28,569 nt of DNA from a virus, in the UHGV virus genome UHGV-0000020, one strand, 5' to 3'. The notes beneath the pieces were generated by a model. That model was not told the origin of the DNA. It made no database searches and saw nothing but the letters and a program-made list of their open reading frames with translations. Numbering within the stretch: position 1 is the stretch's first letter; every line of letters starts with the position of its first letter. Positions 9,280-28,569 of the stretch are shown here, one piece after another. A program made the position numbers and the translations under genes.

Positions 9280-10180
9280 CTGTTCCCCCGGCGGTAATGG
9301 TGTATTCAGTACAGAAAGATGCCTGGTATTTACTGAGCACAATGTCAGCCAGTGGCGCGGCCAGTTCGACACGCTGCACACCTTCCACATGCAGCGCGGC
9401 ATAGATTGCCGACTGGCGAATATCACGCCCTAAACGCTGTTGTGAGCTGATATAGGTTTTGAGTTTTTCCTCAGCAGCCAACCGGATGGGCTCGGCTTCG
9501 GGGCCGGGGTAGAAATAGAGTGTGGCGTTAATCTCATAGGGCACGATTTCAGCGCTTTGCACGGTCACACGGTCGCCTACCGGGCGCACCTCTTCAGCGT
9601 TCAGCGCCTTCTCAACAATGGCAAGTAAATCATCCGATGCCGTACCGTCACCCTCGCGGGATAACACTGATATCGTCACACATGCTGGCGTGGGGCTTTC
9701 GACAGAAATATCGGCGACGCGCCCATCGGCGCTGCGGCCATGATATTCATATGCACCAACCGGCCCCGCCACACTCAGCCCCTCAAAAGCCTGTTGTGCG
9801 CGTAGCCGTAAATCTGTATCAGACTCCATTTCTGCGGGTGTTGGTGGAATAGTGCTGTCGTCAGCAGGCGTAATTGTCAGCCGGGCGGTGTTGTTGTTAC
9901 CTGCAATGACATCGAGGTCATTATTTCCCGAATAGGCCAGCGTGACCGCTTTCGCCGCGTCATTCACGCGCTGACGCCAGATAACTTCCCGATAAGCGTT
10001 TTCCTCCAGATATTTCACCAGAGGCTCAGACTCAAGCGCCAGCGTGCGCGCAACGGCGTCCTGCTGGTCTTCCGGGTACAGAGAGACCAGCGTCGCTTTT
10101 CGCTCGGCGAGGATGCTCTCGAAATCCAGCGTCTCCACAACGTCAGGCGCGGGGAGCTGGCTCAGGTCAATGGTTGCCAT
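9272..10180 (-). CDS. J: Baseplate assembly protein J
   Basis: 302 aa between W and I, MATIDLSQLPAPDVVETLDFESILAERKA... typical gpJ N-terminus. Confidence 0.9.
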   Translation of the reverse strand: MATIDLSQLPAPDVVETLDFESILAERKATLVSLYPEDQQDAVARTLALESEPLVKYLEENAYREVIWRQRVNDAAKAVTLAYSGNNDLDVIAGNNNTARLTITPADDSTIPPTPAEMESDTDLRLRAQQAFEGLSVAGPVGAYEYHGRSADGRVADISVESPTPACVTISVLSREGDGTASDDLLAIVEKALNAEEVRPVGDRVTVQSAEIVPYEINATLYFYPGPEAEPIRLAAEEKLKTYISSQQRLGRDIRQSAIYAALHVEGVQRVELAAPLADIVLSKYQASFCTEYTITAGGTDE

Positions 10181-20848: not shown

Positions 20849-21079
20849 TTAACGCCAGCTTTCGTCTTCCCAGACTTCCTGAAGGATACTATCCAGCGCT
20901 TCCCTGTCTGAATCTTTGTCGACCCCCATCAACTCGACGCCAGTCATTGAGCCTTTTTTTACCGTGACGCGCGTCGACGGAAAAACTGACTGAATTCTTC
21001 GGGTCAATTCACTTTGAAATGCATCAATGACTGGCTGCCCGATTTTCTGGTCTTTGTCTAACGTGATATTGATATTCAT
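20849..21079 (-). CDS. DinI-family protein
   Basis: 76 aa MNINITLDKDQKIGQPVIDAFQSELTRRIQSVFP...ALDSILQEVWEDESWR aligns along its length with E. coli DinI (ELSRRIQ, FP, ILQETWE motifs). Confidence 0.85.
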   Translation of the reverse strand: MNINITLDKDQKIGQPVIDAFQSELTRRIQSVFPSTRVTVKKGSMTGVELMGVDKDSDREALDSILQEVWEDESWR

Positions 21080-21082
21080 AAC

Positions 21083-21265
21083 CTACTCAGCCTCATAAAA
21101 GAAATCTTCTTCGGTCTCGTTATTTTCGCTATTTGCAAGATCGGCAATGAGAGTGAGCGCGAGCTTTAAGTCTGCTGGTTTGCAGTTCGCTATCAGAGAT
21201 ACCTCGGCTATGAATTGCACACAAGCCCACTTTTGCTGCGTTCGGCTGAAATGTTCCCCAACCAT
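21083..21265 (-). CDS. Hypothetical acidic 60-aa protein, first ORF of LexA-controlled operon
   Basis: ATG at 21265 with GGGAGGG Shine-Dalgarno immediately downstream of the LexA box; ends ...ENNETEEDFFYEAE-TAG; in frame with the DinI-like ORF, separated only by TAG plus one codon. The longer track ORF starts at a GTG upstream of the LexA box. Confidence 0.55.
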   Translation of the reverse strand: MVGEHFSRTQQKWACVQFIAEVSLIANCKPADLKLALTLIADLANSENNETEEDFFYEAE

Positions 21266-21285: not shown

Positions 21286-21305
21286 TACTGTATAAATATA
21301 CAGTA
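21286..21305. promoter_or_regulatory. LexA (SOS) box
   Basis: TACTGTATAAATATACAGTA, a 19/20 match to the TACTGTATATATATACAGTA consensus (CTGT-N8-ACAG), 20 nt upstream of the 60-aa ORF start and next to a TTGCCA -35-like hexamer. Confidence 0.8.
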
Positions 21306-25194: not shown

Positions 25195-25704
25195 TCACAC
25201 CAAACCGAACGTTGCGCCAATGCCAGTCATGGTATCGACAACACTCGACATTGCCGGGTTGGACTGAAGCCGAGCATGTAACGCCAGTGCAGACAGTGAC
25301 AGCATGCGAATACCAGAATTAACGCTTTCGACCATGCTGTGCTTACGGTCAGAGGTCAGACGTTCAGTCGATACAGCACCGGTTGCCAGCTCGCCAAGTT
25401 CACTCATTGCACGCATGACATAGGTCTGAAGTTTGTCTTTTGCTAACTCATTCACTGGCACACAAGGAAGACAATGAATCTGAGCGAGAAAGCCATCAAC
25501 GAGGGTTGAGTCTTCAGTCAGGTCAGTCAGTAGCCACAATTCAGGCGGTGTGAACTGGTGAGGCTGTTCCGGGTTGAGCTTGTTACGTAACGTTTGAACG
25601 TTCATACCCGCACGCTCGGCCAGCTTCGCCATGTTGTGACGCTGCGCAAAGGCCCGACATGCTTCGTCGAAGTGGGGATGTTTGGAAACCTGAAAATCAA
25701 ACAT
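25195..25704 (-). CDS. B: Replication protein B-like (start 25704 or 25728)
   Basis: About 169 aa (MFDFQVSKHPHFDEACRAFAQRHNMAKLAERAGMNVQTLRNKLNPEQPHQFTPPELWLLTDL...), at the P2 B position in the early operon upstream of A; GGAG Shine-Dalgarno before ATG 25704. Confidence 0.65.
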   Translation of the reverse strand: MFDFQVSKHPHFDEACRAFAQRHNMAKLAERAGMNVQTLRNKLNPEQPHQFTPPELWLLTDLTEDSTLVDGFLAQIHCLPCVPVNELAKDKLQTYVMRAMSELGELATGAVSTERLTSDRKHSMVESVNSGIRMLSLSALALHARLQSNPAMSSVVDTMTGIGATFGLV

Positions 25705-25736
25705 GTTGAAATCTCCGTCAACTTGCATAATCAAGT

Positions 25737-26102
25737 TCAGTTAAGCGCCTGGGTGTCGGCGGGGATATAACGACAATCGATAGCTTGCTGCGTCAATTTG
25801 TCGCGCCATGCTTTGACGTTGACTAATGTGCGGCCGCGTTTATTGGCCTCTTCTTTGTTTGAGAAATCTTTGGTTGGAGCCTTGAGTAATATGCCTTTGT
25901 CGAGCCATTGCCACACAAGGCGCTCGCTGATTCCACGGGTTGCCGCGAAGTCTTCGACTGTCATAGTGTCTGACATAGCGGAGCGAATCAGGCTTTCCAT
26001 TTTTGGCAGCATTGCATCAACGATGGCCGCTAGCTGAGCGGGTTCTAAACGTAAAGTTTGATTTTGTGAGTTATCAAGCGATGTTGATTTTGCATCTGAC
26101 AT
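25737..26102 (-). CDS. First early-operon gene: putative Cox/Apl-like HTH regulator or excisionase
   Basis: 121 aa ORF immediately downstream of the candidate lytic promoter, with a helix-turn-helix-like segment MTVEDFAATRGISERLVWQWLDKGILL; occupies the cox/apl position. Functional call is by position and motif only. Confidence 0.45.
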   Translation of the reverse strand: MSDAKSTSLDNSQNQTLRLEPAQLAAIVDAMLPKMESLIRSAMSDTMTVEDFAATRGISERLVWQWLDKGILLKAPTKDFSNKEEANKRGRTLVNVKAWRDKLTQQAIDCRYIPADTQALN

Positions 26103-26164
26103 ATCGCATTATCTCCTGTTGTGTGAAATGTGGTGCAGTGGTGTGCATCTTGGTCGATGAACGC

Positions 26165-26194
26165 CACTATAGATCGTAAAAAGTTATCTGTAAA
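26165..26194 (-). promoter_or_regulatory. Candidate early (lytic) sigma70 promoter
   Basis: Minus strand reads TTTACA (26194-26189), a 17-nt spacer, then TATAGT (26170-26165), about 60 nt upstream of the first early ORF; both hexamers overlap the operator-like repeats. Confidence 0.5.
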
Positions 26195-26215
26195 CACCCA
26201 TAAAGTTATCTATAG
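26167..26215. promoter_or_regulatory. Operator-like repeat cluster between divergent early and repressor genes
   Basis: Direct repeat AAAGTTATCT at 26180-26189 and 26202-26211 (22-bp spacing) and palindromic CTATAG hexamers at 26167-26172 and 26210-26215 (CTATAGAT / ATCTATAG arms). Confidence 0.5.
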
Positions 26216-26223
26216 AGGTTTTT

Positions 26224-27087
26224 ATGAGTTCTGGGCTTGATGTTCAGTGGCGCATCGGTGCGGCAAATGGAGTTTTAGAGCGCTTGATGTCTGCGTATGG
26301 CGTGAAGATGCAGAAAGATTTGGCTGACCTGCTGGGGATTGCAAAACATAGCGTGAGTGGTTGGGTTCAGCGCGATGCGATACCGGGCAATATCATCGTG
26401 AGATGCTGTCTCGATACTGGCGCTGATATCAACTGGCTTGTAAATGGTGAACTTGCAAATGCAAACCTCGATCTCCAGCATAGTCGTTTGAAAGGCAAAG
26501 AACTCTATGACGAAATAATGACTAACGGTGGTAAAACCGTATTACGCCGTATTTTGGATGCGTATGGTTTTACGATGCAAAAAGAACTTGGTGATTTGCT
26601 AGGCATTTCCTCTGGCACCATCAGCACTTGGGTTCGTCGAGAGTTCTTTCCGGGGGATGTAGTAGTCGCCTGTGCACTTGATACCGGAGTTTCCCTTGAG
26701 TGGTTGGCTACTGGCAAAGGGCAAATGCTGGATAGTTCATCGAGAAAAAATGCTATTCAGCAAGTAATAAAAAAATGTCGATTAGAAGCCGGAGAACTCA
26801 AAGATGCAGGTGAGTGGCATCCTGACCCTTCAATGGTTCCCGACGCTCACGACAAGCTCATTTATATAGTTGGTGTTACATCATCTTGGTTAATAGATAA
26901 AGCAGTGCTGAATGTATCTAATGGCAGATGGCTCATAAGCATTGATGGTGCTTTTGACGTTTTCGACGTGATTCGATTACCAGGCGGCAAGGTTCGCCTA
27001 TCAAATAAAAATGCAGAATTTGAATGTAATCTTGCAGATATCACACCAGCCGGGGCTGTTATTTTTACCTTGGAAAAACACATATAA
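26224..27087 (+). CDS. cI: Immunity repressor, 186 CI-type, with tandemly duplicated N-terminal DNA-binding domain
   Basis: 287 aa; two homologous about 65-aa repeats (residues ~13-75 and ~103-166; LERLMSAYGVKMQKDLADLLGI...SGWVQRDAIPG...CCLDTGADINWL vs LRRILDAYGFTMQKELGDLLGI...STWVRREFFPG...CALDTGVSLEWL) resembling the phage 186 CI N-terminal domain, plus a C-terminal domain; divergent from the early operon. Confidence 0.75.
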   Translation: MSSGLDVQWRIGAANGVLERLMSAYGVKMQKDLADLLGIAKHSVSGWVQRDAIPGNIIVRCCLDTGADINWLVNGELANANLDLQHSRLKGKELYDEIMTNGGKTVLRRILDAYGFTMQKELGDLLGISSGTISTWVRREFFPGDVVVACALDTGVSLEWLATGKGQMLDSSSRKNAIQQVIKKCRLEAGELKDAGEWHPDPSMVPDAHDKLIYIVGVTSSWLIDKAVLNVSNGRWLISIDGAFDVFDVIRLPGGKVRLSNKNAEFECNLADITPAGAVIFTLEKHI

Positions 27088-27095
27088 GGATAGTT

Positions 27096-27488
27096 ATGAA
27101 ACGTTCTATTTTTGCAGTTGCTTTGCTCGCTTCTTTCTCAGTATTTGCACAGCCATCTAATTTATCTGTTCTGAAAAAATCGATGAATGAGATGCAACCA
27201 ATTTCAATTGAGGAAAGTGATAGCACCGTTGTGATTGTGCTCAACACCGCAAGCGTTACGCCAGAAATCTACGACACTGCCATTTTAGGTATCTGCAACC
27301 CCGTTTGGTTGAATAAAGAAAACACGGCATACCTTAAAAATACTAAAGAAGTACATGTGCTGAATAAATTTAGTGCCATCGGATATGCACTTGAGAAGCC
27401 ACGCGCGACATGTGAAAAGGCAGGCCAAGAACAACCAAAACAATCCCAAATTACAATTCTTTCAAACACTCATACTCTTAGTCTGTAG
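27096..27488 (+). CDS. Secreted or periplasmic protein of unknown function (moron)
   Basis: 130 aa with Sec-type signal peptide MKRSIFAVALLASFSVFA and likely cleavage before QPS; AAGGA Shine-Dalgarno; 8 nt after the cI stop and upstream of int; AT-rich. Confidence 0.7.
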   Translation: MKRSIFAVALLASFSVFAQPSNLSVLKKSMNEMQPISIEESDSTVVIVLNTASVTPEIYDTAILGICNPVWLNKENTAYLKNTKEVHVLNKFSAIGYALEKPRATCEKAGQEQPKQSQITILSNTHTLSL

Positions 27489-27519
27489 CACGTAAATCAT
27501 CATATAGCCTCGGTGTATT

Positions 27520-28569
27520 ATGACTGTAAGCAAACAAAAAAACGGCAAATGGTTATGTGAGCTCTATCCAAACGGTCGGGAAGGGCGGCGTATACGTCGA
27601 CACTTCAACACCAAAGGTGAGGCCGAGGCTTTTGAGCTTTACACAAAAAATGAAAGTGAAGACAAGCCGTGGCTCGGAAAGAAAGAAGACCGACGGCGTT
27701 TAAGTGAAATTATTCAGCTTTGGCATAATTTACACGGACAGGCTCTAGTCGCGAGCAAATCAAGATTGGCTAAATTGCAGATTGTGTGTAATGGCCTTGG
27801 CGACCCTATCGCATCCCGTCTCACAGCTAAGGATTGGGCTCACTATCGTGATAAACGGCTTCGTGGTGAAATTGATAATGGGTATCACAAAGACCCTGAG
27901 AAATGGATAGCTAAACCGATTACGGTCAACCGTGAACAGCAGTATTTAGAGGCCGTTTTCAATGAGCTAAAGCGGTTAGGGGAATGGTCGCTACCAAACC
28001 CTCTCGATGGCATTCGCGTCTTTAAAGAAGCTGAAAAGGAAATGTCATGGCTAACGATCGAGCAAATACCTCAACTTTTACAGGCATGTCATCAGTATGG
28101 ACACGAAGACCTTACACAGATTGTTGAGATTTGTTTAGCTACCGGCGCGAGATGGAGTGAGGCAGAGCGATTGACTCGTCCGCAGCTTTCGCCCTACAAA
28201 CTGACTTTCACAAAAACGAAAGGCAAAAAAAATCGTACAGTCCCGATCACAAAATGGCTTTACGAAAAATTATCCACACGACAGGGGCGAATGTTTAAGC
28301 CTTGCTATCAGGAGTTCAAAAAAATGCTTTTGCTCACTGATATCGAACTGACGGAAGGCCAGAAAACCCATGTTTTACGCCACACCTTTGGTGCGCATTT
28401 TATGATGAACGGCGGTAACATCCTTGTTCTTCAGAAGATACTTGGTCACGCTAACATTCGTGAAACAATGAAGTATTCGCACTTTGCACCAGACCATCTT
28501 GAGCAGGCTGTTACATTGAATCCCTTGTCGTTAGCTATTGGCGACAAAGTGGCGACAGAGGTTGCGTAA
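27520..28569 (+). CDS. int: Tyrosine integrase (P2 Int family)
   Basis: 349 aa; N-terminal GREGRRIRRHFNTKGEAEAFE arm-binding-like domain and C-terminal catalytic motifs ...LATGARWSEAERL... HVLRHTFGAHFMMNGG...LGHANIRETMKYSHF; TAA at 28567-28569. Confidence 0.92.
   Translation: MTVSKQKNGKWLCELYPNGREGRRIRRHFNTKGEAEAFELYTKNESEDKPWLGKKEDRRRLSEIIQLWHNLHGQALVASKSRLAKLQIVCNGLGDPIASRLTAKDWAHYRDKRLRGEIDNGYHKDPEKWIAKPITVNREQQYLEAVFNELKRLGEWSLPNPLDGIRVFKEAEKEMSWLTIEQIPQLLQACHQYGHEDLTQIVEICLATGARWSEAERLTRPQLSPYKLTFTKTKGKKNRTVPITKWLYEKLSTRQGRMFKPCYQEFKKMLLLTDIELTEGQKTHVLRHTFGAHFMMNGGNILVLQKILGHANIRETMKYSHFAPDHLEQAVTLNPLSLAIGDKVATEVA

Follow-up and report, generated by a model that had tools for sequence, protein, structure and literature searches.

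The switches of phages 186 and P2 serve as textbook models, both of transcriptional interference and of repressor 'wheels'; 186 CI is a 14-mer wheel that wraps DNA. In 186, binding sites of Apl are known both at pR-pL and at att, and in P2-like phages the two start sites are typically 40-60 bp apart (PMC7498355). The operators of P2 are spaced 22 bp centre-to-centre, and in P2 Hy dis the repeats flank the -35 hexamer (PMC1904268). For PSP3 (Eganvirus PsP3), a 2011 survey said of the CI repressor only that it has a 'longer C-terminal domain', and classed the Apl analogue as a singleton (PMC3448106). Literature searches on the PSP3 switch and on tandem-HTH CI proteins returned no study of either, and the switch of the PSP3 group appears to be uncharacterised.

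The DNA analysed here (the window) was a stretch of 28,569 nucleotides from the virus genome UHGV-0000020. On the plus strand a 287-aa repressor gene (26224-27087) is followed by a small secreted-protein gene and a tyrosine integrase gene. On the minus strand a 121-aa gene (start 26102) is followed by genes for CII (CP76), DUF5347, DUF2732, a TraR-like protein, and the replication endonuclease gpA. The repressor-int operon and the early operon are divergent and the early promoter adjoins the repressor start, a layout shared with the annotated 186 record; that record follows the same plan in the order and families of int, cI, apl-like, cII, DUF2732, TraR, and gpA. The nearest records were PSP3, SEN1, SW9, Midge, RCIP0057, and E. 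coli prophages of the genus Eganvirus, all with identical gene order, and similar DNA was found in 124 of 5,426 complete E. coli genomes. Judged by gene content and order, this is probably a PSP3-like prophage (Eganvirus, 186-type), with its P2/186-type lysis-lysogeny switch in this region. The int stop codon marks the end of the window, and the att side lies beyond it.

Between cI and int, positions 27096-27488 (plus strand) encode a 130-aa protein with a signal-peptide-like N-terminus that matched phrog_3807 and had no Pfam match. A DUF2511 gene occupies this gap in PSP3, SEN1, SW9, Midge, and the E. coli relatives. The 27096-27488 gene is a presumptive swapped cargo gene.

The cI repressor (287 aa, 26224..27087, plus strand; Shine-Dalgarno GAGG at 26215-26218) contained two stretches matching PF07022 (Phage_CI_repr HTH) and one matching PF16452 (Phage_CI_C, the oligomerisation domain) in Pfam. 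These correspond to NTD1 (aa ~14-78, 26263-26457), NTD2 (aa ~92-166, 26497-26721), and the CTD (aa ~184-287, 26773-27084). Residues 105-280 aligned end to end with full-length 186 CI (2FJR, E 2e-19), so NTD2 and the CTD together amount to a 186 CI, and NTD1 is an addition. The two HTH domains were 50% identical to each other. An AF2 model comprised three domains with low-confidence linkers at 78-87 and 170-178; no confident arrangement between domains was obtained for the monomer (pTM 0.46), and this model is therefore equally open to a pseudo-dimer and to tethered domains. The repressor is apparently an unstudied 186-type CI with an extra N-terminal HTH.

Across 26 loci, mean pairwise identity was 62% for NTD1, 87% for NTD2, and 64% for the CTD, and the NTD2 recognition helix, ISSGTISTWVRR, was almost invariant. 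The DNA encoding NTD2 (26497-26721) was only ~70-85% identical, indicating that the constraint on NTD2 acts on the protein. As a separate observation, NTD2 was the most conserved part of the repressor, with 76-100% pairwise identity where the CTD dropped to 31%. In total, 932 database proteins matched the repressor at E <= 1e-5, and the best 120 were nearly all ~280 aa long. The tandem architecture is common in Enterobacterales.

All of the elements that an earlier note on this DNA had listed around the repressor start were recovered at their positions. The leftward promoter (Pe) is composed of the -35 hexamer TTTACA (26194..26189, minus strand) and the -10 hexamer TATAGT (26171..26166, minus strand), separated by a 17-nt spacer, with a predicted start near 26159. 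Ten of 12 consensus positions are matched. Pe was the sole sigma-70-like site in 25600-27600, where shuffles of that region averaged 4.1, and its PWM score was 13.4; only six positions scored 10 or above across both strands of the whole window. The Pe hexamers occurred at the same position across 106 related loci. The -35 hexamer (TGTAAA on the plus strand) was invariant in nine of nine aligned relatives; nearly all of the 106 loci had it, and TTGCAA stood in its place in one cluster. In the nine-relative alignment the -10 hexamer varied only to TAAAGT or TATATT, and the variants found in heteroimmune relatives (TAAAGT, TATATT, and TACAGT) kept the key positions. Conserved in all relatives and the counterpart, in position and sequence, of 186 pR (TTTACT-17-TATATT there, TTTACA-17-TATAGT here), this element is the early lytic promoter that the earlier note had taken it to be. 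The early 5' UTR, measured from the predicted Pe start to the first early gene, would be ~57 nt long, and single-sequence folding of it (z = 0.1) was uninformative alone. The two palindromic CTATAG hexamers that had been paired in the same note (26167-26172 and 26210-26215) do not form a pair of sites: the former is merely the -10 hexamer, and the latter is unconserved, reading CTGTAG or ATGTAG in most same-immunity relatives.

The exact 10-mer AAAGTTATCT occurs at 26180-26189 and at 26202-26211, 22 bp apart, and the direct repeat extends to 13 nt with 12 of 13 positions identical (consensus AAAGTTATCTrTA). Candidate operator repeat 1, AAAGTTATCTGTA (26180..26192, plus strand), shares 4 bp with the Pe -35 hexamer and takes in 9 bp of the spacer. 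Candidate operator repeat 2, AAAGTTATCTATA (26202..26214, plus strand), falls in the UP-element zone, at approximately -43 to -55 from the predicted Pe start. When the 64-bp interval from the promoter to the repressor ATG was shuffled 5000 times, a 13-nt repeat with at most one mismatch had P = 0.0008 and an exact 10-mer repeat had P = 0.0016. Repeat 1 was kept as AAArTTwTCTGTA in 32 same-immunity loci, and other motifs took its place in other NTD1 types. The repeats are thus real (shuffle P ~0.001), they flank or overlap the -35 hexamer, and they change with the first HTH of the repressor across 14 types. The accompanying suggestion that bound repressor would occlude both promoter hexamers is only partly supported: repeat 1 overlaps the -35 hexamer and the spacer, and the -10 hexamer is 8 bp away from repeat 1. 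The repressor ATG (26224) lies beyond the second repeat by 9 nt, counted from the 13-nt form, or by 12 nt, counted from the 10-mer (~8 nt in the earlier note), with the GAGG between them.

Two further copies were considered and set aside. A third AGTTATC at 26069-26075 was missing in relatives sharing the same operator, and an exact 9-mer, AAGTTATCT, at 9979-9987 (minus strand), some 16 kb away, had neither an extension nor a partner and is probably due to chance.

Clustering of the 106 loci by NTD1 at 85% identity gave 14 clusters. Between 26177, just right of GATCG, and the repressor ATG the DNA differed with each cluster while the island to the left was unchanged, and each of the 14 clusters had its own motifs around the -35 hexamer. 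Similar NTD1 recognition helices were paired with similar half-sites: AKHSVSGWVQR with AAAGTTAT / ATAACTTT, xANN(V/I)SSWLAR with AATTTTG, and both PSNSVSTWVQR and PANNISSWIQR with AATCGA / AATCGC. Types F, G, and E2 had other dyads near the -35 hexamer. Among 11 representatives tested against shuffles, a repeat or dyad was significant (P <= 0.02) in six (A, C, D, D2, E2, and G), and this crude repeat test gave no significance for types A2, B, B2, and E. Operator geometry also varied: direct repeats are 22 bp apart here and 18-23 bp apart in some other types, and further types have dyads centred on the -35 hexamer. Because geometry differs between types, a single rigid binding mode is excluded; a tethered, independently binding NTD1 would explain the variation. 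Operator DNA adjoins NTD1 coding DNA, and part of the co-variation could therefore be plain linkage. The evidence that is independent of linkage is the internal repeats and the correspondence of helix to half-site. Together these data support the direct repeats as the best operator candidates, to which the repressor would bind.

At the boundary between the variable and constant DNA, beside the Pe -10 hexamer, lies GATCG (26172..26176). It forms the right edge of the conserved island and was kept in most immunity types, with rATCG present in eight of 11 operator types. Speculatively, the invariant second HTH domain may use GATCG as a half-site.

The island itself (26084..26177) was 92-97% identical to PSP3, Midge, and SW9, and the genes flanking it were 40-80% identical. 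In a Kosakonia prophage, the island was 82-95% identical and the flanking genes only 40-60%. Within the island, direct repeats TGCAGTG / TGCATCT, 10 bp apart (26134..26150, plus strand), lie between the two predicted start sites, and another TGCATCT is found at 26091-26097. TGCAGTG-N3-TGCA was present at the switch in most related loci and, where the flank extended far enough, recurred immediately after the stop codon of int. Examples of the TGCAGTG repeats spaced 10 bp apart past int were seen in relatives L107 (1083-1106) and L001 (4799-4822) and in many IMG/VR loci. The int-side repeats are probably excisionase sites at att, and the TGCA repeats of the switch are probable binding sites of an Apl/Cox-like excisionase.

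The first early gene (25737..26102, minus strand; Shine-Dalgarno AGGAGA at 26118..26113) encodes a 121-aa Apl/Cox-like protein that matched phrog_575, 'Cox-like excisionase and repressor', at E 1e-5. A PDB sequence search with this protein found nothing. Its gene is positioned as is 186 apl, and the homologue in the Midge record is annotated as Cox. The first early gene is accordingly of the excisionase/repressor type, with direct repeats one helical turn apart at the switch and, in relatives, beside int.

A rightward promoter candidate (Pc), TTGATT-17-CATTAT (26084..26112, plus strand; -35 at 26084-26089 and -10 at 26107-26112), is the counterpart of 186 pL. Its PWM score of 8.4 was equalled by ~60 sites in the window and is not significant alone. 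Its -10 hexamer lies 4 nt from the ATG of the first early gene (26102), between that ATG and the Shine-Dalgarno sequence, and its -35 hexamer lies 17 nt further, inside the first codons. This register relative to the apl ATG is identical, to the nucleotide, to that of annotated 186 pL (TTGCGA-17-CATGAT). The pattern TTGnnn-17-nAnTAT was kept in all 60 distinct island sequences listed, distant loci included, and the block of near-perfect conservation starts at the first T of the -35 hexamer. It also survived where the N-terminus of the first early gene was different, as TTGATT/CAGTAT, TTGAAT/CAGTAT, TTGCAT/CAGTAT, TTGCAA/GATTAT, and TTGCTT/CATTAT. The start of Pc would be near 26119-26120, placing the predicted Pe and Pc starts ~40 bp apart and facing each other. 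Given the 186 pL register and the conservation of the hexamers in every related locus, the face-to-face layout, which the earlier note had offered conditionally, is well supported at the sequence level. A second plus-strand promoter candidate, TTGAAA-17-CATCTT, was rejected: distant loci lack it, the window has GTGAAA at the -35, and transcription from it would begin within the loop of the hairpin described below.

From Pc, the repressor leader would then be ~104 nt long. Single-sequence folding of this leader (z = -1.6) was uninformative alone, and only the alignment revealed a conserved RNA hairpin at 26137..26168 (plus strand, repressor-sense). The hairpin (-15.7 kcal/mol) has an outer stem of 8 bp and an inner stem of 4 bp, and it covers the Pe start together with part of the -10 hexamer of Pe. 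In 42 distinct sequences, 92% of cells were paired, compared with 19-54% when partners were slid, and RNAalifold recovered the hairpin core unaided. At pair 32:55, the counts were GC 18, AU 10, CG 5, and GU 6. The core pairs included 61 G.U cells and one A.C cell on the plus strand, which indicates that selection acts on the plus-strand (repressor-sense) RNA. The covariation places the start of a functional plus-strand transcript upstream of 26137; this fits a start at Pc or at the CII-dependent pE and contradicts a short leader. Having no U-tract, the hairpin is not a typical terminator, and an Rfam search of 25600-26500 at E <= 1 gave no match.

Upstream of the Pc region, a CII-binding inverted repeat of pE, ATGTTTG-N13-CAAACAT (25678..25704, plus strand), was near-identical to the annotated 186 CII site. 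Its surroundings (25661-25708) were also almost identical to the 186 CII/pE site, and the cII start codon sits inside the right arm of the repeat. The true start of cII is the ATG at 25704 (169 aa), as opposed to the TTG at 25734 (179 aa) in the list of open reading frames. A perfect 18-bp palindrome, AACTTG-CATAAT-CAAGTT (AACTTGCATAATCAAGTT, 25720..25737), separates the apl-like gene from cII and so occupies the place that FR, a CI operator, has in 186. The palindrome was conserved irrespective of NTD1 type. NTD2 could bind it, its centre could be the -10 hexamer of pE, or it could form a minus-strand RNA hairpin; a common variant pairs only as minus-strand RNA. A search for an FL-like second copy gave only one site, with two mismatches, at 25782, fewer than in shuffles.

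Downstream of gpA, a perfect, consensus LexA box, CTGTATAAATATACAG, is present at 21288-21303. It is followed on the minus strand by a 60-aa ORF (21265..21083; phrog_1993) and by a DinI-like ORF (21079..20849) that matched the C-terminal half of a 151-residue PHROG profile. The LexA box and the two ORFs look like a split Tum-type SOS antirepressor module.

These elements can be assembled into a switch as follows. The strong Pe (minus strand) would drive the Apl/Cox-like gene, cII, and the replication genes, and the weak Pc (plus strand) would fire toward it. Because the promoters face each other with starts ~40 bp apart, an active Pe would suppress Pc by convergent transcription, as in 186. 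The 10-bp-spaced TGCA repeats between the starts would serve the Apl-like protein. NTD1, a duplicated HTH on a flexible linker, would set immunity specificity; by reading both AAAGTTATCT repeats, two helical turns apart, at the Pe -35 hexamer it would shut Pe, and interference on Pc would thus be relieved. The transcript from Pc, or from CII-activated pE, would carry the ~104-nt leader with its conserved hairpin. Taken as a whole (Pe, Pc, NTD1 on the repeats, and a long leader), we consider this model likely to be correct.

How the repressor is built to do this can be described more tentatively. A modular repressor is possible, in which an invariant 186-type core (NTD2 and CTD) retains shared functions and a flexibly tethered NTD1 is exchangeable. 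NTD1 and ~50 bp of operator would then form a ~300-bp immunity cassette that has been swapped into at least 14 specificities, and half-sites 12-23 bp apart could be either direct or inverted because NTD1 is tethered. The shared functions of the core could be oligomerisation, contact with conserved DNA (GATCG or the palindrome at the FR position), or docking of a Tum-like SOS antirepressor. Candidate roles for NTD2 in particular are recognition of the conserved rATCG next to the -10 hexamer, recognition of the 25720-25737 palindrome, or service as the docking surface for the antirepressor.

Other explanations were weighed against these readings. The operators might instead be composite, NTD2 reading an rATCG half and NTD1 a type-specific half, so that the repeats would be the NTD1 halves of two pseudo-dimer sites. 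The presence of rATCG at the left edge of operator 1 in eight of 11 types, whatever the NTD1 type, is consistent with this, as is the NTD2 helix ISTWVRR, which is closest to the NTD1 helices VSTWVQR and ISSWIQR, whose types have ATCGA/ATCGC half-sites; in those types operator 1 is truly palindromic (AATCGCAAATGCGATT). However, operator 2 is without a conserved left half, and the two halves change together in types F and G (ATACA..TGTAT and ATCCA..TGGAT), with NTD2 unchanged. Conservation of GATCG may also reflect island membership alone, and the AF2 model gave no fixed arrangement of NTD1 and NTD2 (pTM 0.46). Composite operators are unlikely. It is much more improbable that the repeats are not repressor sites at all and represent UP-element-like A/T-rich DNA upstream of the -35 hexamer, binding sites of IHF or the Apl-like protein, or a local duplication that is neutral. 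Repeat 2 does lie ~43 to 55 bp upstream of the Pe start, where UP elements sit, and excisionases do bind direct repeats (PMC7498355). Nevertheless, the excisionase-type repeats here are a different motif (TGCAGTG at 10-bp spacing) that is common to the att side, and a change of NTD1 comes with wholesale replacement of the AAAGTTATCT region but with no change in the Apl-like gene or the island. The repeat was, moreover, retained with drift in 32 same-type loci.

The remaining alternative concerns the repressor transcript. The earlier note had proposed that the repressor mRNA may carry a very short leader, which would place its promoter just upstream of the ATG, giving a short leader or none, with TTGATT-17-CATTAT conserved only through its overlap with the Apl-like gene. 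The cI gene of lambda, leaderless when transcribed from PRM, is a precedent, and a weak CTGTAA-17-TATAGA (score 5.4) ends 7 nt before the ATG. A search for a conserved promoter close to the repressor ATG nevertheless found none, this weak candidate losing its -10 hexamer in relatives (TGTAGG in most of the same type). The Shine-Dalgarno sequence (GAGG/GGGG) is conserved, the upstream plus-strand hairpin shows selection on a longer transcript, and the Pc hexamers persist in loci L013, L022, L024, and L104-L106 despite a different Apl N-terminus. A promoter next to the ATG is accordingly very hard to credit, and the short leader was abandoned in favor of the long leader from Pc or pE.

The element that had been noted is thus an ordinary switch of the P2/186 type, and it was correctly identified; what is added here is a tandem-domain repressor and its proposed exchangeable specificity module. 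For annotation, this corrects the view of PSP3 CI as having a 'longer C-terminal domain'. The analysis describes a widespread sister group of 186/P2 in which the repressor gained a second DNA-binding head that would carry immunity specificity. If confirmed, the group would provide a natural system for specificity exchange without touching the oligomerisation and induction machinery, for how a tethered HTH tolerates direct versus inverted half-sites, and for the role of a conserved hairpin in a lysogenic transcript that crosses the lytic promoter.

Compared with 186, the locus has the same gene order, type of early promoter, and register of the candidate lysogenic promoter relative to the apl ATG. 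Both have excisionase-type repeats between the promoters and at att (the att side being known here from relatives), and the CII sites are nearly identical. The core of the repressor is collinear with 186 CI (2FJR), the spacing of the candidate operators fits the two helical turns seen in 186, and in both a LexA box accompanied by a DinI-like gene follows gpA. The two differ in several respects. Whereas 186 CI has a single N-terminal DNA-binding domain, the repressor here has two HTH domains. There are three inverted-repeat operators in 186 and two direct repeats here, although other immunity types of the family have dyads. Start sites are 62 bp apart in 186 and predicted to be ~40 bp apart here, and seven excisionase repeats in 186 compare with two to three here. 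The Apl analogue here is 121 aa long and only distantly related to 186 Apl, and no FL-like site was found in this locus.

The candidate operators resemble those of P2-type C repressors (P2, P2 Hy dis, and W-phi), which likewise consist of two direct repeats at the early promoter, with promoters face-to-face. Unlike P2 C, which is a protein of roughly 100 aa, the repressor here has 287 aa and 186-family domains only, and it is accompanied by cII and pE; the likeness to the P2 C operators is a functional resemblance only. The direct homologues of this switch are those of PSP3, SEN1, SW9, Midge, and RCIP0057, in which CI was 68-81% identical and the same tandem architecture, island, and promoters were present. 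The window differs from the PSP3 group in the secreted-protein gene between cI and int.
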